Source: Escherichia coli 042 (GTDB lineage Bacteria > Pseudomonadota > Gammaproteobacteria > Enterobacterales > Enterobacteriaceae). Taken from it: DNA of 64,000 nucleotides. The translations under genes and the position numbers were made by a program. The stretch lies in assembly GCF_000027125.1 (NCBI RefSeq), contig NC_017626.1. One strand, given 5' to 3'. Below the pieces are notes generated by a model. It did no database searches. It was given only the letters and a program-made list of their open reading frames with translations, and was not told the DNA's origin. Positions 15,005 to 42,329 of this stretch are shown here, one piece after another; the first letter of the stretch is position 1, and each line of letters begins with the position of its first letter.

Positions 15005-15402
15005 CGCTTCAGTTCCTGTATCAGCAGAGTCAGGAGCTTTTCGCTGACATTGCCATTGAAGCGGAGCGTCCCGTGCCGGAACGTTACCTCACAGCTGATA
15101 CTGAGGGTTTCCGGGTCCTCTGCGAGCGATTCTGGCTGTTCGGCAGCTGCATCGAGAGTCACAGGAAGTAGCTGGGGGCTCTCTGAAGAAGGTAATAGCA
15201 GCTTTCCCTCGCGCCATTGTTGTCGCCATTTGAACAACAGATTGGCGTTAATGCCATTTTCAAGAGCAAGTTTTGAGATGGATATCCCGGGTTCACAGGA
15301 GGCAGCAACGAGCAGCTGTTTAAATTCGGGAGGATAATTAGGGAAGCCTTTTCGCCTGCCGGGAGTCACATTTTTCTGCATATCTGACACTTTGGTTCCC
15401 AC
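15001..15402 (-). CDS. IS66 Orf1 (TnpA-like, helix-turn-helix)
   Basis: 133-aa ORF overlapping orf2 start by 4 nt; ...RRKGFPNYPPEFKQLLVAASCEPGISISKLALENGINANLLFKWRQQ... Confidence 0.85.
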   Translation of the reverse strand: MGTKVSDMQKNVTPGRRKGFPNYPPEFKQLLVAASCEPGISISKLALENGINANLLFKWRQQWREGKLLLPSSESPQLLPVTLDAAAEQPESLAEDPETLSISCEVTFRHGTLRFNGNVSEKLLTLLIQELKR

Positions 15403-15735: not shown

Positions 15736-16170
15736 TTACAGCCTCTGTAACGGATTATCAGCCCTGGCATCTTCCGACGGCACCTCCTGCCGCCCCCACG
15801 CCCTGCTGTATACCCCGGTACCGCAGCGTGGGCAGCACTTTTCCCCCTCATAATCTTCGTCACACATCACACAAAACCACTTTCTCACCTTCACCGTATA
15901 ATCCGGAACCGTCATGCCCTGCAGATGCAAACGACGGGCCTCTTTCTCTGCCGGGTCAAGCCAGGTACATCGCAGCAGGATTTTTTCAGCGACAGTCATC
16001 TGGTCATGTTCAAACCACGGTGGTTGTCCGTCATTGCCCCGCTGAAGTGTTAACGGGCATCCACAGGACACACAGCACAAAACGTCCTGTCGGTTGTGCT
16101 TCGCAGCTTCTTTCGCCGTAACAAAATGGCCTTTGCTGTCATTCGCCATATAACAGTTCAGAATTCGCAT
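15736..16170 (-). CDS. hypothetical cysteine-rich (zinc-ribbon-like) protein, paralog A
   Basis: Start set at MRILNCYMANDSKG, preceded by AGGAGG; CxxC clusters (CCVSCGC, CVMCDEDYEGEKCCPRCG) and PWFEH motif. Confidence 0.5.
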   Translation of the reverse strand: MRILNCYMANDSKGHFVTAKEAAKHNRQDVLCCVSCGCPLTLQRGNDGQPPWFEHDQMTVAEKILLRCTWLDPAEKEARRLHLQGMTVPDYTVKVRKWFCVMCDEDYEGEKCCPRCGTGVYSRAWGRQEVPSEDARADNPLQRL

Positions 16171-16565
16171 ATTTCCTCCTGAGTTGTCCGGGGAATACTG
16201 AATCCTCCGGTCTGGCAGTGTGTGCAGTACTGCTCCCCATAATAATCGTGGTGACATTGTCTGCAGTGCCAGCTGGCTTTACGCACCACGGGTAAGGCAT
16301 CCGGTACGAATTGCTGCAGACGTTTAATCAACTGTATTTCTCTGCGCTCCGGCCTGACATAAGGGCACTGTTGACCGTGCTCTGTCAGCCTGTCGTCAGT
16401 GTGTTCAAACCAGGGAAGTTCAGTTTCGTATTGCGGATGGTATCTGAGTGCACTGCCACACAAGTGGCAGGTGTAGTTAGCATAAGGTGCGGCCTGTGCA
16501 GTACGGGCGCCCGTCAGACGTCCGTTGCCATCAAGAGCGATAAAGGATTTTGCGTACATAGTCAT
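16158..16565 (-). CDS. hypothetical cysteine-rich (zinc-ribbon-like) protein, paralog B
   Basis: 135-aa; CHLCGS, CRQCHHDYYGEQYCTHCQ and LPWFEH motifs; 3-prime end overlaps start of paralog A by 13 nt. Confidence 0.5.
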   Translation of the reverse strand: MTMYAKSFIALDGNGRLTGARTAQAAPYANYTCHLCGSALRYHPQYETELPWFEHTDDRLTEHGQQCPYVRPERREIQLIKRLQQFVPDALPVVRKASWHCRQCHHDYYGEQYCTHCQTGGFSIPRTTQEEICEF

Positions 16566-16818
16566 ATACCTCAGCCGCCAGACGACACGCAGGCAACAGC
16601 CGTCCCGGTACGGGCAGCGTGGTCAGGGTGTGAATGGCGGTTCAGTTAAAATCTGGACTGGAGTTTGGGTAAAGCAGGCTGGTTGCTGTTACAGCACTGT
16701 GGTTGTCACACAATGGAACACTGACGTAAAAAACAGTCAGTGGGCGAGTGGATACATCGTTGCTGCCAGACAACAACCCATACTTTTGGTTTGCCGGATA
16801 TTGGCGCGCCAGTCGTGC

Positions 16819-17424
16819 TCAACTCCGGCTACAGCCAAAATTGCGCTCACCGGTGCAGTGAGCTTTGGTATGCTCCTTCGCCAGATAGTCAGCACGTTCC
16901 AGCACTTGCTGAAAGCCGGTGTCATCATTACGCGCCAGCCACACCGCCGGCCAGGCCGGAAAATGCACCAGCGTGGCATGGCACCCGACATCCACTCCCA
17001 GGGCACTGCACCACGCCTGTTTAATCATCCCGGCCAGAGACTCCGGAGCGCGGTAATCACCGGCACGACACCAGGTATCCCGGTTGACCAGCAGCATCAG
17101 GTGATAGTGTTTTTTACCTTTGCACTCCCCAAACTCCCGGGCCCAGACGTAATGCAGGGTTGTGGGATGCACGCGTTTACCTTCCCGATGCTTACGTTTC
17201 TGGTAAGCGTCGATTCGGGCTTTCAGGGCATTGATGAAGCGGGATATCACAGCTGCGTCCGTTGCTGCCGGTACATCCGGGAGACGCAGGTCAACCCGCA
17301 ATGCCGTCAGGCGGGGATGAACATTCAGTGCGTGCCGCACCGTCTCACGAATACGTTGCTGCCAGAAGGGGTTGTATTTGTAGGTCATGGTTAAATCTCC
17401 GTATGGTTCATACGGAATAGCCAC
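16819..17424 (-). CDS. inovirus Gp2-like / YfjJ-YagK family protein (prophage-associated)
   Basis: 201-aa translation ...MTYKYNPFWQQRIRETVRHALNVHPRLTALRVDLRLP... recalled as the YagK/YfjJ family; true start may be the internal Met at 17388. Confidence 0.6.
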   Translation of the reverse strand: MAIPYEPYGDLTMTYKYNPFWQQRIRETVRHALNVHPRLTALRVDLRLPDVPAATDAAVISRFINALKARIDAYQKRKHREGKRVHPTTLHYVWAREFGECKGKKHYHLMLLVNRDTWCRAGDYRAPESLAGMIKQAWCSALGVDVGCHATLVHFPAWPAVWLARNDDTGFQQVLERADYLAKEHTKAHCTGERNFGCSRS

Positions 17425-17583: not shown

Positions 17584-17787
17584 GTGATGGTGATACGCAA
17601 AAAGAAGTGCAGGGACTGTGGAAACGCGATTACTCATAATACAGTGTGTTGCCCGTATTGTGGTTCTGTCGACCCCTTCGGCTACTACCGGAATACAGAC
17701 CGTATCGTTACCATACTGCTGGCGCTGATTATTGTGGTCCTGCTGACTACTGTCAGCGTCAGTGTGTGTATACTGTGTAGCTGGTGA
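17584..17787 (+). CDS. hypothetical small zinc-ribbon membrane protein
   Basis: 67-aa; CRDCGN...CCPYCGS followed by a hydrophobic segment. Confidence 0.35.
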   Translation: MMVIRKKKCRDCGNAITHNTVCCPYCGSVDPFGYYRNTDRIVTILLALIIVVLLTTVSVSVCILCSW

Positions 17788-19016: not shown

Positions 19017-19223
19017 ATGGCTACCCCAGTTTCACTGATGGATGACCAGATGGTCGACATGGCATTTATCACTCAACTGACCGGCCTGACAGATAAGTGG
19101 TTTTACAGGCTCATCAGGGATGGGGCCTTTCCGGCTCCCATCAAGCTGGGCCGCAGCTCCCGCTGGCTGAAAAGTGAAGTGGAAGCCTGGCTGCAGGCGC
19201 GTATTGCACAGCCCCGCCCGTAA
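19017..19223 (+). CDS. AlpA-family prophage transcriptional regulator (tentative)
   Basis: 68 codons from MATPVSLMDD...; ...FYRLIRDGAFPAPIKLGRSSRWLKSEVEAWLQ... resembles AlpA-type regulators. Track ORF 18822..19223 is over-extended. Confidence 0.55.
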   Translation: MATPVSLMDDQMVDMAFITQLTGLTDKWFYRLIRDGAFPAPIKLGRSSRWLKSEVEAWLQARIAQPRP

Positions 19224-32929: not shown

Positions 32930-35821
32930 ATGATTGGTACAACACCTTATCATGCGAAATATTTTGCGCATGAACTTTCCATTCTTCATTCAAACAATGG
33001 GGTGGACCGTCTGTCTCAATCGCTGTTTGATGCAAGCGTAGATCTAAACCCTCATCAAATTGAGGCGGCTCTTTTTGCTATCGAAAATCCGCTAAGCAAA
33101 GGTGTTGTGCTTGCCGATGAAGTTGGTTTGGGTAAAACCATTGAAGCTGGACTAGTGCTTTGCCAGTTGTGGGCTGAAAGAAAACGTAAACTGTTGATCA
33201 TTTGTCCTGCTTCACTGCGTCGCCAATGGGCGAGCGAGTTACAGGAAAAGTTCAATCTACCTTCTCAGGTGTTGGACGCGAAAATGTATAGCCAGCTTCA
33301 AAAAGAAGGGATCCATAATCCCTTAAATAATAAATCGATCACTATCATGTCATACCACTATGCTGCTCGGTTAGAAGAGAAATTGGTGGCTGAAATGTGG
33401 GATCTGGTTGTTATCGACGAAGCCCATAAACTGCGTAATGCTCATCGAGAAAGCAACAAAATGGGGCAAGCGTTAAAGCGTGCGCTTGATGGGCGGAAGA
33501 AATTACTACTGACCGCAACGCCTTTACAGAACTCGTTGATGGAACTGTATGGCATGTCGACGCTTATAGATGAACATACCTTCGGCGAAGTTAAAGCGTT
33601 CAGAAAGCAATATATGCAGGCAGATAGCGATATTGCGGAGTTGAAGGGGCGATTGTCGCGTTTTATCAAACGAACTCTACGCAAGAATGTGCTGGAGTAT
33701 ATCAAGTATACAGAACGTAAAGCGATCACTATTCCTTTCTATCCGAGCGAACAGGAGCAGGATCTTTATGAACGCGTACAAAAATTGCTTGAACGTGAGG
33801 ATAGCTATGCCTTACCAAAACGACACCGGCATCTGACGGGGCTTATACTCAGAAAACTACTTTCCTCAAGTACGAAAGCCGTATTGAATAACTTGCAGAT
33901 CCTTAAGACTCGTTTAGAAAGGTTAAAGCTGGAAGGTATCGTTGAAGATGATATGGACATCATCCAACAGATCATAATGGATGATGATCTTGAAGATGAC
34001 ATCGTTGAAGATGCCGAATCAGTAGCGCCAGATACAGAGTGCAAATCTGTGGATTCAGATGCGCTTCAGGCAGAAATCAATGAGCTGGAATCACTCATTG
34101 TCAAAGCAGAACAGATTGGCACTGATACCAAATCAAAAGAGTTGCTTTCTGGCCTGGAGCAAGGTTTTGCACAGCTTGCCGAAATGGGGGCTGCAAAAAA
34201 AGTCATCATCTTCACGGAGTCGATGCGAACTCAACAGTACCTTGCACATTTTCTGGAAAACAATGGCTACCAGGGAAAAGTAGTAACCTTTAGTGGCACA
34301 AACAATACACCGCAGGCAAACAAGATCTACCAGCAATGGCGCGAGGAATATCAGGGATCTTCTCGTATTACCGGGTCGGCGCAAATTGATAAACGCTCGG
34401 CTTTGATCGACCACTTCAAAGATCATGCTGAAATCATGATAGCTACAGAAGCTGCAGCTGAAGGGGTGAACCTGCAATTTTGTTCGCTACTGATCAATTA
34501 CGATTTCCCCTGGAACCCACAACGCATTGAACAGCGTATTGGACGTTGTCACCGATACGGGCAAAAATTTGATGTGGTTGTTATTAACTTCCTCAATCAG
34601 CGAAACCAGGCCGATCAACGCGTTCTTGAACTCTTAACTGAAAAGTTCAGCCTGTTTGATGGCGTGTTTGGCGCATCGGATAGTGTGCTTGGCAGCATAG
34701 AAAATGGTGTGGATTTTGAAAAAAGGATCCAGTCAATTTATGAGTCATGCCGTACCCCCGAGGAGATAGAGCTGGCTTTTGAAAGGTTGCAGAAAGAGCT
34801 GGAAGATGAAATCAATCTCAAGATGCAGAAGACGCAAGAACAGTTGCTTGAGCATTTTGATGAAGATATTCACGATATCCTTAAAATAAGGCTTGATGAA
34901 GCTCGGGAGCGCCTGGATAAAGTCGGTCGTTGGTTTTGGGCCGTGACCTGTCAGCAGCTCAAACAATATGCTGATTTTGATCATGAGCATCATCGTTTCA
35001 CTTTACGTGAATCAGTCAATGAACTGCCTGTCGGGCAGTACCAGCTGTTGCGCAAAGATGGCAGGCAAAATAGTGCGTTACAAATGCAGGATCACCACAG
35101 TTTTGCATATCGGATCAATCATCCGCTGGGTGAGTACGTCATTGAGGGAGCCAAAGCCCAGGAGACGAAAACAGCTGAAGTCATCTTCGATTACAGTAAC
35201 CACACAACGAAAGTTTCGGTGGCTGAGCAGCTGAAAGGGCAATCAGGATGGTTAACACTAAATTTGCTTACTGTTGATGCGTTTAACAGGCAGCAATTTT
35301 TAGTCTTTACCGCGAAAACTGACAACGGACGTGTGGTAGATGGTGAAGCTTGTAAACGTCTGTTCAACTTGTCTGCAATAACCAACGAAAAGCTGGATAA
35401 TTCGGCAAGTTTAGATGCATTACCTGATGACTTGATCTTACTCAAGAACAGGCAAATTGACGCCAGGCTTGCAGAAGTTTTGGAGCAGAACTATGTCCTT
35501 TTTGAAGCGGAAAGAGATAAGCTGGAAAAATGGGCTGAAGACATGATCTTTGCGGCGGAAGAAGCATTACGCGATACCAAAATGCAAATCAAGTCGTTGA
35601 AGCGAGAAGCCAGGCTGGCGCAATCGATCGAAGAACAAAAGCAAAACCAGGAAAAGCTTAAGCTACTGGAACGGCAGCAGAAGCGTCAACGTATGGAAAT
35701 TTTTGACATTGAAGATGAGATCGCCGACAAGAGGGATGAACTCATCAGTGCCCTTGAAGAGCGGATGAAGCAAAAGACGGATATCACCGAGCTGTTTACC
35801 ATCCGCTGGAAAGTTATTTAA
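32930..35821 (+). CDS. SNF2-family ATPase, RapA/HepA-like, short N-terminus
   Basis: 963 aa. Motif I LADEVGLGKTIEAG, motif II VVIDEAHKLRN, motif III LLLTATPLQN, motif VI QRIGRCHRYGQ; C-terminal coiled-coil-like region. Several blocks resemble RapA; RapA N-terminal domains absent. Confidence 0.85.
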   Translation: MIGTTPYHAKYFAHELSILHSNNGVDRLSQSLFDASVDLNPHQIEAALFAIENPLSKGVVLADEVGLGKTIEAGLVLCQLWAERKRKLLIICPASLRRQWASELQEKFNLPSQVLDAKMYSQLQKEGIHNPLNNKSITIMSYHYAARLEEKLVAEMWDLVVIDEAHKLRNAHRESNKMGQALKRALDGRKKLLLTATPLQNSLMELYGMSTLIDEHTFGEVKAFRKQYMQADSDIAELKGRLSRFIKRTLRKNVLEYIKYTERKAITIPFYPSEQEQDLYERVQKLLEREDSYALPKRHRHLTGLILRKLLSSSTKAVLNNLQILKTRLERLKLEGIVEDDMDIIQQIIMDDDLEDDIVEDAESVAPDTECKSVDSDALQAEINELESLIVKAEQIGTDTKSKELLSGLEQGFAQLAEMGAAKKVIIFTESMRTQQYLAHFLENNGYQGKVVTFSGTNNTPQANKIYQQWREEYQGSSRITGSAQIDKRSALIDHFKDHAEIMIATEAAAEGVNLQFCSLLINYDFPWNPQRIEQRIGRCHRYGQKFDVVVINFLNQRNQADQRVLELLTEKFSLFDGVFGASDSVLGSIENGVDFEKRIQSIYESCRTPEEIELAFERLQKELEDEINLKMQKTQEQLLEHFDEDIHDILKIRLDEARERLDKVGRWFWAVTCQQLKQYADFDHEHHRFTLRESVNELPVGQYQLLRKDGRQNSALQMQDHHSFAYRINHPLGEYVIEGAKAQETKTAEVIFDYSNHTTKVSVAEQLKGQSGWLTLNLLTVDAFNRQQFLVFTAKTDNGRVVDGEACKRLFNLSAITNEKLDNSASLDALPDDLILLKNRQIDARLAEVLEQNYVLFEAERDKLEKWAEDMIFAAEEALRDTKMQIKSLKREARLAQSIEEQKQNQEKLKLLERQQKRQRMEIFDIEDEIADKRDELISALEERMKQKTDITELFTIRWKVI

Positions 35822-35826
35822 TTGAT

Positions 35827-38800
35827 TTGAAAGAGAAAATAATGAGTAAGTACAACGAATTAGTTAAGAAGTTAAAAGAAATTTTTCAGATTGATCGACC
35901 AGAACTGGATTTCGGTATTTATCGTATTTTAAATGCACGTGCTGATGAAATTAACGACTATCTGGATAATAAGCTGAAGGCCAAAATCCAGTCTGCGCTG
36001 GCGGATGCAGGAAATGCCAATAAATCAGAATTAGAACATCAGTTGCAACTGACAATAAAAGCGGCAACTGATGCGGGTGTAGACCCTGCTGATAGCCCAA
36101 AAGTACAGGAGCTTAAAAAGCAACTGGCGGCTATGGCATCCGGAGCAAATGAGCATGAAAATGCAGTATTTTCCCATCTGCTCACTTTCTTTTCGCGTTA
36201 TTATGACAACGGCGATTTTATCAGCAAACGCCGTTATAAAGGTAATACCTACGCCATCCCCTATTCTGGCGAAGAAGTGATGTTGCACTGGGCAAATAAG
36301 GACCAGTACTACATTAAAAGCGGTGAAAACTTCGCTAATTATTCGTTCAAATTAGAAGACGGTCGTAAAGTTAGCTTTAAATTGCTCGCAGCGGACACAG
36401 CAAAAGATAACCGTAAAGATAATGAATTAGATCGCTGCTTTGTACTTATTGAGCCGCATGTTCGTACCAAAATTGATGAAGAAGGCGATGAGTACGAACA
36501 AGAATATAAGCCAGTAGAAGTGGTGAAAACTTCATCTGTGGTTGACGGTAAACTCGTTGAAACAGAAGAGTTAGTTATTCATTTCGAATATAAGGCAATG
36601 AAAAAGGGCACTAAGCAGGATGCTTTAGTGCAGTCCGCTATTTCAAAAATTCTGGCTGATAAAACAGTACAACAGCATTGGGTTGATCTTGCTAAACGTG
36701 CGCCAACCGAAAAAAATCCGTCACGTACAGAGTTGGAGCGTCATTTAACAACATATACCCAACGTAATACGGCTGACTACTTTATTCATAAAGATCTCGG
36801 TGGCTTTTTAACGAACGAACTGGATTTTTATATTAAAAATGAAGTAATGAATCTCGATAATGTGCAAAATGCAGAAGTGTTTGCTAATATTGAGAAACAA
36901 CTGCGCATGATTCAATGTTTGCGTGCTGTTGCGCTGGAACTCATCACTTTTTTGGCACAGATTGAGAATTTCCAAAAGAAACTTTGGACTAAGAAAAAGT
37001 TTGTTGTAGAGACAAACTATATATTTACCGTAGATAAGTTACCAGAGGAATTATATTCAATTGTCATTAAGAATGATGCCCAATGGGAACAATGGAAGCA
37101 ATTAGGTTTCCTCAGCGATTTTTCGGGAGATAGAGAGAAAACTCTGAAAGAAAAACAAGGGTTAATTGTTGATACTTCATTATTTGATTCCAAGTTCAAA
37201 GAGAAATTTATCAACAATATCGCTGATGTTGACACAAATGTTTCCGCTTATTTATATAGTGGAGATAATTATCAAGTGTTAAATCTTATTAAAATAAAAT
37301 ATAATAATAAAGTTGATGGTATATATATAGATCCACCTTATAATACCAATGCGTCTGAGATTTTATACAAAAACGGTTATAAGGATAGCTCATGGTGTTC
37401 TTTAATGAGTTCTCGTTTAGAGATAAGTAAATCCTTATTAAAAGAAAATGCAGCTACTTGTACAACTATTGATGAGTATGAAGTTGCTAATTTGGAATTA
37501 TTGCTAAAAGAAACGTTTACAGGATATCAAATCAGACCTGTTGTTATTGAATATAACCATCGAGGACGAGTTAAAAGTAATTTCGCTATTACCCATGAAT
37601 ATGCTTTATGGACCTTACCAGAAAATAAAGATGTAATATCGAGACAAGTTGAAATATCAGAAGAAATTAGGCGTAACTTGCGTAGAACTGGTTCAGGTTC
37701 TACTCGTGCCGAATCTGAAAGTCAATTTTATGGCATCGAAGTTGACAATAATACCCTCGAGATTGTCAATGTAACCGAAGCTTTACCAAGTTTAGATTCA
37801 GCAATTCCTACGCATCTAAATAAAGATACAACAATGGTATGGCCAGTAGATGACCAAGGGGTTGAGCGGCGCTGGTACTATGGGCGAGATCGTGTTATTC
37901 GCGAAGCTAAAGAAGGTACTGTTTGGGCGAAAAGAATAAAAGGTGAGATACAAATACATTACAGACAAGCAGGAAAACCTAAAATGCGTAAATCTGTATG
38001 GATTGGTCCAAAGCTTGACGCAAGTACCTATGGTTCGGAACTATTAAATAGTTTGTTTAACGTGACTCAGATTAATTTTTCTTTTCCAAAAAGTATTTAT
38101 GCGGTTAAGGAATGTTTAGAGTCGCTTAGTAATTCGAAGTATGCTCATTTCTTAGACTATTTTGCTGGCTCTGGTACTACAGGGCATGCAGTGGTAGATA
38201 TGAATAGGGATGATAATGGTTTTCGAAAATTTAGCTTGGTCGAACAAGGTGAATATTTTTATTCTGTTACCTTGCCTAGAGTAAAAAAAGCTATTTTTAC
38301 AACTGATTGGAAGTATGGAAAAGCACTAAGCTGTAATCCAGTTGAGCAGACATTAATAAAATATATTAAAATTGAGAGTTTTGAGGATACTCTTAACAAT
38401 ATAGCACTGAAACGTACTGAAACAACAAAGGATCTTTTCGACGATCTTAAAGAAATTCGAGAGGATTATGTTCTTAACTATATGCTTGAAACAGAAAGCA
38501 AAGGCTCACTACTCAATACTGATAATTTCAAAAAACCATTTAACTACGAAATGGATGTTACAACGGATTCCGCAGGTGCTACTGAGCGTAAGAACATCGA
38601 TTTAGTTGAAACTTTCAACTATCTCATTGGCTTACATGTGAAATCCATCGAATCCAATATCGAACGTGGCTATGTGCGTGTTGAAGGAACGCTACCAACT
38701 GGCGAGCGTACCCTTATTCTGTGGCGCGATTGCGACAAGATCGGCTATGAAGAATTGAATAAATATGCCAACAGATTCGATTTATATGCAAAAGAAAATA

Positions 38801-38946
38801 CGTTCGACGTTATCTATATCAATGGCGATCATAACTTACCTACCGCCTTTACCGTTGATGAAGAAGACGGCGAGATTGTTCGTAGCCTGAAAATCCGCCA
38901 GATCGAACCTGAATTCTTGAACCTGATGTTTGCGGAGGAGGTTTAA
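35827..38946 (+). CDS. DNA methyltransferase, N6-adenine/N4-cytosine (beta-class order), Type III Mod-like with N-terminal extension
   Basis: 1039 aa. Motif IV DPPY (IYIDPPYNT, about 37330) precedes motif I FxGxG (DYFAGSGTTG, about 38160), with a roughly 290-aa variable region between; about 500 aa of unrecognised N-terminal sequence. 6-nt gap after SNF2 gene. Confidence 0.8.
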   Translation: MKEKIMSKYNELVKKLKEIFQIDRPELDFGIYRILNARADEINDYLDNKLKAKIQSALADAGNANKSELEHQLQLTIKAATDAGVDPADSPKVQELKKQLAAMASGANEHENAVFSHLLTFFSRYYDNGDFISKRRYKGNTYAIPYSGEEVMLHWANKDQYYIKSGENFANYSFKLEDGRKVSFKLLAADTAKDNRKDNELDRCFVLIEPHVRTKIDEEGDEYEQEYKPVEVVKTSSVVDGKLVETEELVIHFEYKAMKKGTKQDALVQSAISKILADKTVQQHWVDLAKRAPTEKNPSRTELERHLTTYTQRNTADYFIHKDLGGFLTNELDFYIKNEVMNLDNVQNAEVFANIEKQLRMIQCLRAVALELITFLAQIENFQKKLWTKKKFVVETNYIFTVDKLPEELYSIVIKNDAQWEQWKQLGFLSDFSGDREKTLKEKQGLIVDTSLFDSKFKEKFINNIADVDTNVSAYLYSGDNYQVLNLIKIKYNNKVDGIYIDPPYNTNASEILYKNGYKDSSWCSLMSSRLEISKSLLKENAATCTTIDEYEVANLELLLKETFTGYQIRPVVIEYNHRGRVKSNFAITHEYALWTLPENKDVISRQVEISEEIRRNLRRTGSGSTRAESESQFYGIEVDNNTLEIVNVTEALPSLDSAIPTHLNKDTTMVWPVDDQGVERRWYYGRDRVIREAKEGTVWAKRIKGEIQIHYRQAGKPKMRKSVWIGPKLDASTYGSELLNSLFNVTQINFSFPKSIYAVKECLESLSNSKYAHFLDYFAGSGTTGHAVVDMNRDDNGFRKFSLVEQGEYFYSVTLPRVKKAIFTTDWKYGKALSCNPVEQTLIKYIKIESFEDTLNNIALKRTETTKDLFDDLKEIREDYVLNYMLETESKGSLLNTDNFKKPFNYEMDVTTDSAGATERKNIDLVETFNYLIGLHVKSIESNIERGYVRVEGTLPTGERTLILWRDCDKIGYEELNKYANRFDLYAKENTFDVIYINGDHNLPTAFTVDEEDGEIVRSLKIRQIEPEFLNLMFAEEV

Positions 38947-38948
38947 GA

Positions 38949-41900
38949 ATGGCTAAAAAACCGACCACCGGTAAAGCAGTTAAAAAAGAGACTAACAGCA
39001 AGCTGAGCTTTCATAAGCAGTTGGTTTTAAACCGCTTTATGTTCCATTTTTTTAAAGATGGCACATTGCAAGGTTTGAAGAATCGGTTAGGCGAGGATCG
39101 CTTTGAAGGCATCCATGAAGATGGCCAAAGCTTATTCTTCCATGAGCTGAGTAACTATTTATTCGAGGTCGATCTTATCGATCTCGATGAACTGCGTCGT
39201 TACGATCTCAATATCGTGCAGCACTGGCAGCAGATAACCGAGCACCGTAATCGTAAAGAAGACACAGTGCTGAACATGAAATATTTTCAGTACTTGTCGC
39301 TTCTGTTTACCGAGATCTACCTGGACTGGTACTTCAACCGTAAACAGCAATTACTCGATGGGCTAAATAACGAGCTGGCAGCATACAATGCTGAAAATGA
39401 TAAAACAGCAAAAGACCGGGCTAATCAGTTCAAATCATACGTTCTGGATGATTTGAATAAACTGGCATACTGGAACGCTACTGGTTCTGGTAAGACACTG
39501 CTATTACATGTCAATATTTTGCAATATTTACATTATTTCCAGAACGGTAATAGCCATCATTACCCGGATAAAATCATCCTGCTTACGCCGGATGAACGCC
39601 TATCGAAGCAACATTTAGATGAACTGGAAAACTCAGGATTTACCCAATACCAGTTATTCGATAAGAGTAAATCCGCGCCATTTAAAGGCACGATTGAAGT
39701 TATTGATATCAATAAACTTGCCGATGAAATGGGTGACAAAACTGTTGCCGTTGAGGCATTTGAAGGCAACAATCTGGTCTTGATTGATGAAGGGCATAAA
39801 GGCACAGGAAGTGCTGCTGGTGCCTGGATGCGCCGTCGTGACAAATTAACGCGTGACGGATTTGCGTTTGAATATTCAGCAACTTTTGGCCAGGCAGTGG
39901 CCGGTGGCAATAATGTTGAGGCAGTTGAAACAGAAATTCAGAAGAAAAAAGCAAAGCTGCTTTTTGAAACAACTGCCTTAGGTAAACTGAGCGAAGAACA
40001 GTTAGCGCAAATAGCATTAACCAGCGAAGAACAACGTGATGCGCGTATTCAGGCGACACGAGAAGTCTATGGGAAATCGATTCTGTTCGATTACTCCTAT
40101 AAATTCTTCTATGAGGATGGTTATGGTAAAGAATCACTGATTCTTAACCTTAATCCTGAAGAGGATAAAAAAGATGAGCGTCGGTATGAGTATTTTACCG
40201 CGTGTTTGCTCAGCTTTTATCAGCAACAATATTTATTCAATAAGAATAAAGAAAAATTAAATGAATTTAATATCGAAAAACCGCTATGGGTTTTTGTCGG
40301 TAACACCGTAAGTGGTGAAGATTCAGACATTCACGCAGTACTGCGTTTTTTAGCATGGTTTTTAAATCATGAATCGCAGGCAAAATCGTGGATTAAAGAT
40401 CTCATTGAAAATAAAGCGCGAATTCTTGATACCAAAGAGCGTAACATTTTTGAAAATCGCTTTACCGCACTAATGAACGGCCCGGAAGATATCTACGCAG
40501 ATATTCTTTCTCGTTTGTTTAACACCACTCACTCAGGTCAGAGACTGCGAGTTCTGAATTTAATAGGCAGTAAAGGTGAACTGGCATTACAGGTTGGTGA
40601 GGCCGAACCGTTTGGTCTTATCAATATTGGTGATGCACCGTCTCTTTACAAAATGTGTGAAGAGGATACGACATTTGATTATCAGAGAGATGATTTTGCG
40701 AAGTCACTCTTTCATACGTTAAATGACAAAGACTCGCAACTACATATTTTGATCGGCTCGCGAAAATTTACTGAAGGCTGGAGCAGTTGGCGCGTCTCAA
40801 CGATGGGATTGCTCAATATGGGCCGTGGAGAAGGTTCACAGATCATTCAGTTATTTGGTCGTGGCGTTCGCCTTAAAGGTCGCAATTATTCTTTGAAACG
40901 CAGTACACCCGGTGAGCGTCCGAAAGGGTTGCATCTGGAAAAATTAGAGACACTGAATGTATTCGGTGTACGTGCCGATTACATGGCAACCTTTAAACAA
41001 TACCTGGAAGATGAAGGGATTACGCCAAGTGACGAGATCCTTGAGCTGAATTTTGAAACTCGGCCAAATATGCCAGCAACCAGGCTTAAAACACTTAAGC
41101 TTAAAGATGGTTATAAAGATAATCAAAGACTCGGCTTTAAACGTGTCTATTTTCCCGAATTGTATGAAGTTCCTGCTGATTTTCAGGGGAAAATTAAGCA
41201 GCCGCATATTAAGCTGGACCTATACCCGAAACTTGAGTCGATTGATACCAGCAGAAAAGGGGACAATACTCCGGTTAACGTGCGTAATGAAGCGAAGTTA
41301 GATTATAAAATCATTAGTGCGTTTGATTTTGATCGGCTTTATCTCGCCATTCAGAATTATAAACTACAACGCGGCTGGTCAAATTTACGTGTGGATAAAC
41401 AACGTTTGATCGACTTTTGTACCGGTAAGACAAAGATCGGAAATAGTTGGTATACCCTTTTGATTCCAGCTTCAGAGCTTGAGATTAAGCAATATGCAGA
41501 TATTGCTAAGCAGGAAGATATTATGCTTCGTCTGCTGACTGATTATACTGATCGCTTTTACAACACATTGAAAAATGCTTATGAAGGTCAGTTTTATGAA
41601 GTCACGCAGGTGAAAGAAGATGATCCTGGTATGATCAAAATGTACCATTTCGAGATCGAAGAAACTGATGATGGGTTGGCATATGCCAGTCGGCTGGAAC
41701 AATTACAACAATTGGTCATCGACGGCGAAATCGGTAAAGCAAAATCCTGGAGTGCATCCGGGATGGTTGCTATTACCTTTGATAAACATCTCTATTATCC
41801 ACTTCTTTCGATTGAAAAAAATGCCAACATACCGCTAAAAATGCGACCGGCAGCACTGGGTGCATCAAGTGAGATTACTTTTGTCCATGATCTTCAGTCT

Positions 41901-42329
41901 TTTGTTGATTCGACAAAAGGGCAGAAAATTATTGGTGATAAAAGTTTATATCTGCTAAGAAATGCGGATTCTAAAAATAGAGGCCTGGGCTTTGCTACTG
42001 CGGGTAATTTTTATCCGGATTTCTTATTGTGGTTAGTCGATGATAAAAGTGGTAAACAATGGTTAAGTCTTATTGATCCAAAAGGCATCCGCAATCTTAA
42101 TCTTGATGATCCAAAGTTCGGATTATATAAAGAAATCAAGAATCTTGAACATAAATTATCGGATGATAACTTATCATTAAGTGCATTTATTGTTTCTGAA
42201 ACTTGTTATGTTGACTTAGTAAACGTACCTGATTCAAAAGAGAATCTGGAAGCCAGAAATGTGCTTTTTATTGAGGATACTGGCTCATTGTATCTGGAGA
42301 AATTATTCAGTAAGATGGTTAGCGAGTAA
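38949..42329 (+). CDS. SF2 helicase with C-terminal PD-(D/E)xK-like motif, Type III Res-like
   Basis: 1126 aa. Walker A NATGSGKT, DExH LIDEGHKG, SAT, QLFGRGVRLKG; C-terminal YPDFLLWLVDDKSGKQWLSLIDPKG. Start 2 nt after methyltransferase stop. Confidence 0.8.
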   Translation: MAKKPTTGKAVKKETNSKLSFHKQLVLNRFMFHFFKDGTLQGLKNRLGEDRFEGIHEDGQSLFFHELSNYLFEVDLIDLDELRRYDLNIVQHWQQITEHRNRKEDTVLNMKYFQYLSLLFTEIYLDWYFNRKQQLLDGLNNELAAYNAENDKTAKDRANQFKSYVLDDLNKLAYWNATGSGKTLLLHVNILQYLHYFQNGNSHHYPDKIILLTPDERLSKQHLDELENSGFTQYQLFDKSKSAPFKGTIEVIDINKLADEMGDKTVAVEAFEGNNLVLIDEGHKGTGSAAGAWMRRRDKLTRDGFAFEYSATFGQAVAGGNNVEAVETEIQKKKAKLLFETTALGKLSEEQLAQIALTSEEQRDARIQATREVYGKSILFDYSYKFFYEDGYGKESLILNLNPEEDKKDERRYEYFTACLLSFYQQQYLFNKNKEKLNEFNIEKPLWVFVGNTVSGEDSDIHAVLRFLAWFLNHESQAKSWIKDLIENKARILDTKERNIFENRFTALMNGPEDIYADILSRLFNTTHSGQRLRVLNLIGSKGELALQVGEAEPFGLINIGDAPSLYKMCEEDTTFDYQRDDFAKSLFHTLNDKDSQLHILIGSRKFTEGWSSWRVSTMGLLNMGRGEGSQIIQLFGRGVRLKGRNYSLKRSTPGERPKGLHLEKLETLNVFGVRADYMATFKQYLEDEGITPSDEILELNFETRPNMPATRLKTLKLKDGYKDNQRLGFKRVYFPELYEVPADFQGKIKQPHIKLDLYPKLESIDTSRKGDNTPVNVRNEAKLDYKIISAFDFDRLYLAIQNYKLQRGWSNLRVDKQRLIDFCTGKTKIGNSWYTLLIPASELEIKQYADIAKQEDIMLRLLTDYTDRFYNTLKNAYEGQFYEVTQVKEDDPGMIKMYHFEIEETDDGLAYASRLEQLQQLVIDGEIGKAKSWSASGMVAITFDKHLYYPLLSIEKNANIPLKMRPAALGASSEITFVHDLQSFVDSTKGQKIIGDKSLYLLRNADSKNRGLGFATAGNFYPDFLLWLVDDKSGKQWLSLIDPKGIRNLNLDDPKFGLYKEIKNLEHKLSDDNLSLSAFIVSETCYVDLVNVPDSKENLEARNVLFIEDTGSLYLEKLFSKMVSE

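Follow-up and report, generated by a model that had tools for sequence, protein, structure and literature searches.

The 64,000-nucleotide (nt) stretch of Escherichia coli 042 analysed here (RefSeq assembly GCF_000027125.1, contig NC_017626.1), hereafter the window, raises the question of what is encoded by two small overlapping genes for cysteine-rich proteins, here called ZR-A and ZR-B, that are adjacent on its minus strand, beside a gene for an inovirus Gp2-like protein. A sequence-only reading had described the two as paralogues, had suggested translational coupling between them, and could not name their function; indeed, none is on record in the domain libraries or the literature. The family to which they belong is very common and already catalogued in Pfam and RefSeq, and it does not represent a new type of system. 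What this study adds is the division into A and B subfamilies, a conserved junction that would couple their translation, a link to the CoiA finger, and a surrounding module with an HUH-motif Gp2-like protein, the regulator AlpA, a conserved leader and an unannotated ribbon microprotein of 44 amino acids (aa).

The DNA of the window is, at this locus, 100% identical to that of many E. coli chromosomes. ZR-A and ZR-B are paralogues, with 30% identity over 125 residues (BLASTP, expectation value (E) 3e-15), and each has an N-terminal CxxC, then PWFEH, the shared motif already pointed out, a later Cys, and a C-terminal CxxC-x9-CxxC. ZR-B starts inside ZR-A; the overlap is exactly 13 nt (16158-16170), and an AGGAGG site is located 4 nt upstream of the ZR-B ATG, in agreement with the earlier description. 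An alternative in-frame ATG at 16565 would extend ZR-A by two residues to a 135-aa form. Because only the ATG at 16559, with its GAGG site nine bases upstream, is conserved across genera, the start of ZR-A is set there, as in the Prokaryotic Genome Annotation Pipeline (PGAP) annotation (133 aa).

Both proteins are full-length members of the family that combines DUF7828 (PF25165) with Zn_ribbon_11 (PF11682, formerly DUF3279); they show no difference from it, and it has no assigned function. The DUF7828 model has 87 positions and a gathering cut-off of 25.7 bits, which both proteins passed with E of about 1e-31 (ZR-A, 106.5 bits, model positions 1-87; ZR-B, 105.8 bits, positions 2-86). Zn_ribbon_11, assigned at more than 24 bits together with a W-x-C-x2-C-x9-C-x2-C ribbon, was found in ZR-A (35.3 bits, E 9e-9) and ZR-B (66.4 bits, E 2e-18). 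ZR-A is identical to RefSeq WP_000270978.1 ('putative zinc ribbon protein') and ZR-B to WP_001221615.1 ('zinc-ribbon domain-containing protein'), and in the matching E. coli chromosomes the genes are annotated beside an 'inovirus Gp2 family protein'. An exhaustive profile search of 1.84 billion representative proteins gave only 251 matches with an E of 0.001 or less, and almost all of these are 110-165 aa long. Neither protein matched NCBIfam or PHROG, a PDB sequence search with ZR-B returned nothing significant, and a literature search on DUF3279, DUF7828, PF11682 and the WP accessions found no relevant paper. The family is catalogued but not characterised, and its Cys clusters are conserved, as shown below, so that the sequence-only reading stands. 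This presence in RefSeq and Pfam had been missed in the sequence-only reading, as had the constancy of AlpA as a neighbour and the distinctness and age of the A and B subfamilies.

Residue conservation was assessed in an alignment of 35 diverse full-length relatives (22-47% identity to ZR-B), all 35 of which contain both domains. In ZR-B numbering, C33, C36, F53, H55 and C100 are invariant, and at least 90% of the relatives conserve C68, W98, C103, G109, C113, C116 and G119. Because of the domain matches and these conserved residues, the observation is not attributable to chance. Since eight ligand positions are conserved, each protein is predicted to hold two metal sites, a Cys-Cys-His-Cys (CCHC) site in the DUF7828 part (C31, C34, H53 and C65 in ZR-A; C33, C36, H55 and C68 in ZR-B) and a Cys4 (C4) site in the ribbon (C99, C102, C112 and C115 in ZR-A; C100, C103, C113 and C116 in ZR-B). 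The Cys clusters noticed earlier are therefore real and conserved, but they are not simply two CxxC-type clusters: three CxxC knuckles, a His and a lone Cys make up the CCHC and C4 sets. A confident AlphaFold2 model of ZR-B from the diverse alignment (mean predicted local distance difference test (pLDDT) score 89) has short beta-hairpins, a linker helix (73-85) and the ribbon; it replaced a poor run from 5 sequences (pLDDT 67.5). Nothing resembling a catalytic domain is seen in the model. The WFEH strand had also prompted a comparison with HNH/beta-beta-alpha-metal nucleases, which was rejected: there was no such fold match and no conserved Asn/His helix.

When each of the 35 relatives was scanned separately against Pfam, matches were found to CoiA_N (PF25164; 12 of the 35, best E 6.9e-5), DUF7830 (13 of the 35, best E 1.4e-3) and the YfgJ-type Zn_ribbon_6 (PF07191; 20 of the 35, best E 2e-5). 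All CoiA_N and DUF7830 matches are below the Pfam gathering score; those to CoiA_N (cut-off 26.3 bits; ZR-B, 12.7 bits, E 0.092) indicate remote homology rather than membership. A phage 'competence protein' is also among the weak structural matches. In CoiA, the finger is carried by a DNA-structure nuclease of the PD-(D/E)XK type that resolves transformation D-loops (bioRxiv 10.1101/2024.02.06.579203).

A neighbour-joining tree built on 13 loci places the upstream proteins in one clade (A) and the downstream proteins in another (B). The A type has the nearly invariant N terminus MYAKSFIALDGNGRLTGARTAQ and the B type the N terminus MR.LKCYLAND..GHFVTA; single-copy ZR versions fall on the B side. 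A and B are thus old and separate subfamilies, which stem from an ancient duplication and are kept in a fixed A-then-B order. The ratio of nonsynonymous to synonymous substitution rates (dN/dS) lies between 0.12 and 0.22 for A and between 0.13 and 0.32 for B, with dS between E. coli and the other genera exceeding 1.5. These ratios are well below 1, and therefore ZR-A and ZR-B have both been kept by purifying selection.

The junction ATGnnnnnnnTGA, with the 13-nt overlap and a GGAGG-type site 5-7 nt upstream, is present at seven other loci, namely those of Salmonella diarizonae, Siccibacter, Hafnia, Mixta, Tenebrionibacter, Serratia oryzae and an unassigned metagenome-assembled genome (MAG) of the Enterobacteriaceae, and the ZR genes of a Klebsiella plasmid also overlap by 13 nt according to their annotation. 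A conserved overlap with a ribosome-binding site is what translational coupling would predict. One divergent lineage has a 51-nt gap between the ZR genes, and another has a 10-nt overlap and an A copy without a ribbon. In one database protein (P0076), an A-like finger and a full B-like protein are found in a single chain; this fusion stands alone and may result from faulty gene calling.

Of 5426 complete E. coli genomes, 2982 have the intact pair, at a median of two places each. In K-12, the islands CP4-57, CP4-6 and CP4-44 contain yfjJ or yagK together with alpA and lack any ZR gene, and AbpAB occupies the equivalent position. No member of the family was found in 50,697 phage genomes, and only 33 of 72,556 plasmid records contain one. 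Most of these are large Klebsiella plasmids with the whole module; the remaining records are from E. coli, some of them chromosome-sized. Public records also place copies with 97-99% identity to the E. coli proteins in unrelated taxa, namely a Collinsella MAG contig (L002), a Veillonella MAG (P0004) and Pseudomonas aeruginosa (P0034); contamination with E. coli contigs, or their mis-binning, is the most likely cause, rather than a wider host range. A locus search with a narrower alignment recovered 10 loci.

In other Enterobacterales and in metagenomic contigs the module has the order Gp2-like gene, alpA, ZR-A, ZR-B, in many cases with a second Gp2-like paralogue and a DUF2913 protein behind them. 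Next comes variable cargo, with genes for arsenic resistance, methylase/helicase systems and conflict systems, and then, on contigs long enough to include it, a tyrosine integrase. This comparison shows the ZR pair as part of the conserved core of P4-integrase-type islands of Enterobacterales. AlpA, detected with a profile made from the AlpA-like proteins of the window and of locus L004, is the most constant neighbour of the pair; in other genera its gene immediately precedes ZR-A in the same orientation, whereas in the window it is divergent and about 2.5 kb away. The proposed association with Gp2-like genes across islands also holds, a Gp2-like gene being found in every sufficiently flanked locus except L003, L009 and L011, which have a degenerate downstream copy only, or none.

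The Gp2-like protein of the window, after which the pair was correctly said to follow, matches PF11726 (YagK_YfjJ_C) at E 5e-48 and, weakly, PF23343 (REP_ORF2-G2P) at E 3.8e-5. Its motifs are RVDL, an HYH that precedes hydrophobic residues, and YLAK. R31, D33, E85, H94, H96, Y168, L169 and K171 are invariant in nine diverse homologues, including ones that Pfam had not flagged. With both the HUH and the YxxK motif, it is a predicted HUH nuclease; a search of the PDB with its profile found no relative by sequence. The second Gp2-like paralogue, directly downstream of ZR-B (about 6400-7060 in L003-L009; 8900-9466 in L025), is without the HYH and YLxK motifs and is likely to be catalytically dead, as judged from the missing residues. 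On the Klebsiella plasmid it is followed by the DUF2913 gene. The E. coli version of the module is rearranged and lacks this second copy.

In related islands, the interval from alpA to the leader described below encodes a 44-aa stand-alone Zn_ribbon_11 microprotein (MEKQRRTKPQNIPARWKCPRCRRQYCGARPCPVCFRTSVASAQP; isoelectric point (pI) about 10.9) (L004 5318-5451, L007 5318-5449, L008, L005, L019 4891-5034, L025 7729-7860). It has no PGAP annotation on the Klebsiella plasmid and is missing from the E. coli version.

Directly upstream of ZR-A is a conserved non-coding leader of 88 nt, with the invariant blocks CCGCCATTC, CTGCCC.TACCGGGACGGCT and GCCTGCGTGT.GTCTGG. Its identity to the E. coli sequence is 76-88% in nine of the ten other aligned loci and 50% in Serratia oryzae. 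In the 30 nt beyond it (upstream), identity is only 17-37%, and synonymous sites of the adjoining genes are saturated. The leader is present in a single copy per locus, always ahead of an A-type gene, and could be an operator or a 5' untranslated region element. Three other identities were considered and discarded: a structured RNA (no Rfam match, a fold z-score of -1.3 and almost no covariation); a longer N terminus of ZR-A (ruled out by a 1-nt indel, which breaks the frame in E. coli); and an HUH nick or origin site, judged unlikely given that no leader occurs at loci without an A-type ZR gene or beside K-12 yfjJ. An antisense open reading frame (ORF) of 289 aa, which runs opposite the leader and the Gp2-like gene, most likely results from sense-gene composition. 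The C-terminal part of its peptide overlaps the leader and hence seems conserved, but leader variation is not clearly three-periodic (20, 51 and 44 differences per phase).

The positions of all these features in the window are given in Table 1.

Table 1. Features at and around the ZR-A/ZR-B locus, numbered from the first letter of the window.
Feature	Position	Strand	Description
ZR-A	16158..16559	-	133 aa; A-type DUF7828 + Zn_ribbon_11; ATG 16559-16557, stop TGA 16158-16160
ZR-B	15736..16170	-	144 aa; B-type DUF7828 + Zn_ribbon_11; ATG 16170-16168, stop at 15736
Coupling junction (putative)	16158..16180	-	AGGAGG 16175-16180, ZR-B ATG 16168-16170, ZR-A TGA 16158-16160
Non-coding leader	16560..16647	-	88 nt, directly upstream of ZR-A
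Gp2-like gene, YagK/YfjJ-type 'inovirus Gp2 family'	16819..17388	-	WP_000221544.1, 189 aa (PGAP); limit of the GTG-start ORF at 17424
AlpA-family helix-turn-helix regulator	19017..19223	+	68 aa
IS66-family element	13222-15402	-	tnpA, tnpB, tnpC
Antisense ORF	16525-17394	+	289 aa
Small ORF	17584-17787	+	67 aa; WP_001297219.1 'hypothetical protein'
Three large consecutive ORFs	32930-42329	+	963, 1039 and 1126 aa

The IS66-family element comes directly after ZR-B in the window, about 330 bp downstream, and its insertion point is where related islands begin their variable cargo or hold the second Gp2-like gene. The 67-aa ORF, which is divergent from the Gp2-like gene and keeps its position in other E. 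coli islands, encodes an N-terminal CxxC-x11-CxxC ribbon and a hydrophobic tail that is probably membrane-spanning. The three large ORFs look like a defence-type system in the same island region; for this stretch, the annotations in the matching genomes include an SNF2-related protein, a DNA methyltransferase and a DEAD/DEAH helicase, which are not assigned to individual ORFs.

As to what the pair does, we tentatively favour, at somewhat less than even confidence, a non-enzymatic complex of the two zinc proteins that would bind DNA, RNA or a partner protein within an AlpA/Gp2 life-cycle module of the island. The overlap and the internal ribosome-binding site would couple translation, so that A and B would be made in matched amounts and would act as subunits of a hetero-oligomer. 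A fixed ratio is suggested because the paralogues have stayed paired, with a conserved start/stop overlap, since before the sampled island lineages diverged. A binding or adaptor role is suggested because a finger common to a DNA-structure nuclease is combined with a zinc ribbon and no catalytic domain; the target might be a nucleic acid (DNA or RNA) or another protein, for instance AlpA, RNA polymerase or the Gp2-like nuclease. Because the pair has a fixed position between the HUH-type protein and AlpA, a part in island activation, replication or mobilisation is proposed: the complex would be an accessory or regulatory factor in AlpA-controlled steps after island activation (replication, mobilisation or gene switching) and would not be required for excision itself, and the leader would serve as a cis-regulatory site for the pair's own expression. 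The purifying selection, the possible fusion in P0076, the conserved synteny, the tie between the leader and the A-type gene, and the Pseudomonas islands of like layout (PMC12595487) all speak for this reading.

Several points weigh against it. The literature offers no experiment on the ZR family. Net charge in the family lies between -6 and +7 and the median pI is 7.6, and a charge so near to neutral and so variable does not suggest a general nucleic-acid binder; structural comparison recovered no DNA-binding fold. CP4-57 of K-12, which has alpA and yfjJ without ZR genes, still excises, so the pair is dispensable for excision and for the role of YfjJ there. Furthermore, alpA of E. coli is not co-oriented with the pair, and some island lineages have a single ZR gene, from which it follows that a heterodimer is not obligatory.

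A wider proposal, which we regard as doubtful, is that the Gp2-like HUH protein, AlpA, the optional 44-aa microprotein, the leader, ZR-A/ZR-B and the degenerate second Gp2-like protein make up one undescribed functional unit. Such a unit would control post-excision replication or mobilisation, or phage hitch-hiking, of a very large class of cargo islands at tRNA or tmRNA genes, and the A-B complex would serve the HUH enzyme by recognising a particular structure in DNA or RNA, perhaps its own conserved leader.

The cargo beyond the pair bears on another explanation. ZR-B or the single ZR gene directly borders it, at the edge of a cargo hotspot, and the bordering genes are often defence-like (SMEK/CTD10/MC6/DUF2326 genes; a methylase, an SNF2 helicase and an MmeI-like gene; AbpAB at the K-12 equivalent). 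This arrangement, together with the faster evolution and mosaic nature of the B-type proteins, would fit a phage-sensing, defence or anti-defence factor that triggers or protects the adjoining defence cargo, or hinders a helper phage. We consider this unlikely: a search of the anti-phage defence library PADLOC-DB 2.0 found no match for ZR-A and, for ZR-B, a single one at E 0.063, which does not count as a hit, and the ZR genes belong to the conserved core and not to the variable cargo. The low dN/dS, the lack of an effector domain in the family and its absence from phage genomes likewise argue against such a factor.

Still less probable is that the ZR proteins are transcription factors docking on RNA polymerase, in the manner of P2 Ogr, P4 Delta, TraR/DksA or RPB9/TFS. 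The family profile matches RPB9 weakly (E 0.0025) over residues 30-106, that is, over both zinc modules and the linker, which is a lead only, and Pfam Zn_ribbon_RPB9 is matched by one family member at E 4e-4. The ZR proteins resemble the RPB9/TFS subunits in that a linker of some 40 residues connects two zinc modules, but the combination that defines RPB9/TFIIS/TFS membership (two C4 ribbons, a C-terminal ribbon of the TFIIS type that has an acidic hairpin, and significant similarity to the family) was not found in them. P4 Delta, in which an Ogr-like zinc finger is duplicated in tandem, parallels the tandem paralogues in a P4-integrase island. Ogr and Delta are also small zinc-binding proteins of P4-type elements; they differ from the ZR proteins in Cys spacing and genomic context, and the Ogr family is not among the Pfam matches. 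A toxin-antitoxin or addiction module that stabilises the island is very improbable, even though two small overlapping genes on a mobile element would suit one and such islands hold other pairs (e.g. cbtA/cbeA in the same island), as ZR-A and ZR-B are paralogues of the same fold and architecture, unlike known toxin-antitoxin pairs, occur in single-gene versions, and have neither a toxin domain nor a PADLOC or NCBIfam match.

The pair is present in over half of the complete E. coli genomes, often in several copies, and yet has no gene name, phenotype or paper; its absence from the three K-12 islands may explain the lack of name and data. As it stands, the finding concerns a well-documented domain of unknown function. 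The islands with the pair in their core carry virulence, iron-uptake, resistance and anti-phage cargo, and how such islands replicate or move after excision is a question raised likewise for islands of Pseudomonas (PMC12595487). Were the pair to be a specificity or regulatory subunit of the Gp2-like HUH protein, it would offer a handle on island mobility.

Among known proteins, CoiA and DUF7830 resemble the ZR proteins at the N terminus, where a beta-hairpin is followed by CxxC and a (W/H)F.H strand; with CoiA the likeness extends over all of the first 55 residues, and the hairpin has the form A.D..G. CoiA differs in that a PD-(D/E)XK nuclease follows the finger, whereas the ZR proteins have no nuclease and end in the Cys4 ribbon; no PF06054 was found in ZR-A, ZR-B or the 35 relatives, and the two proteins are only 133 and 144 aa long. 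The likeness to YfgJ-type Zn_ribbon_6 proteins is confined to the C-terminal C4 ribbon, and YfgJ has no DUF7828 finger and is not an island gene. Among known islands, the SRL island of Shigella resembles the island in the window and has the same surrounding layout, including the fec genes and IS66. The sole ORF tabulated there between the IS66 genes and the YfjJ-like orf39 is orf38, described as 'no similarity / hypothetical protein' (PMC6980539), and it probably corresponds, by position alone, to the ZR pair. The tmRNA islands of Pseudomonas have the same layout of integrase, cargo, Gp2-like, AlpA and RadC genes and are transduced by a jumbo phage, and the island genes of that layout have been taken as likely core functions (PMC12595487).

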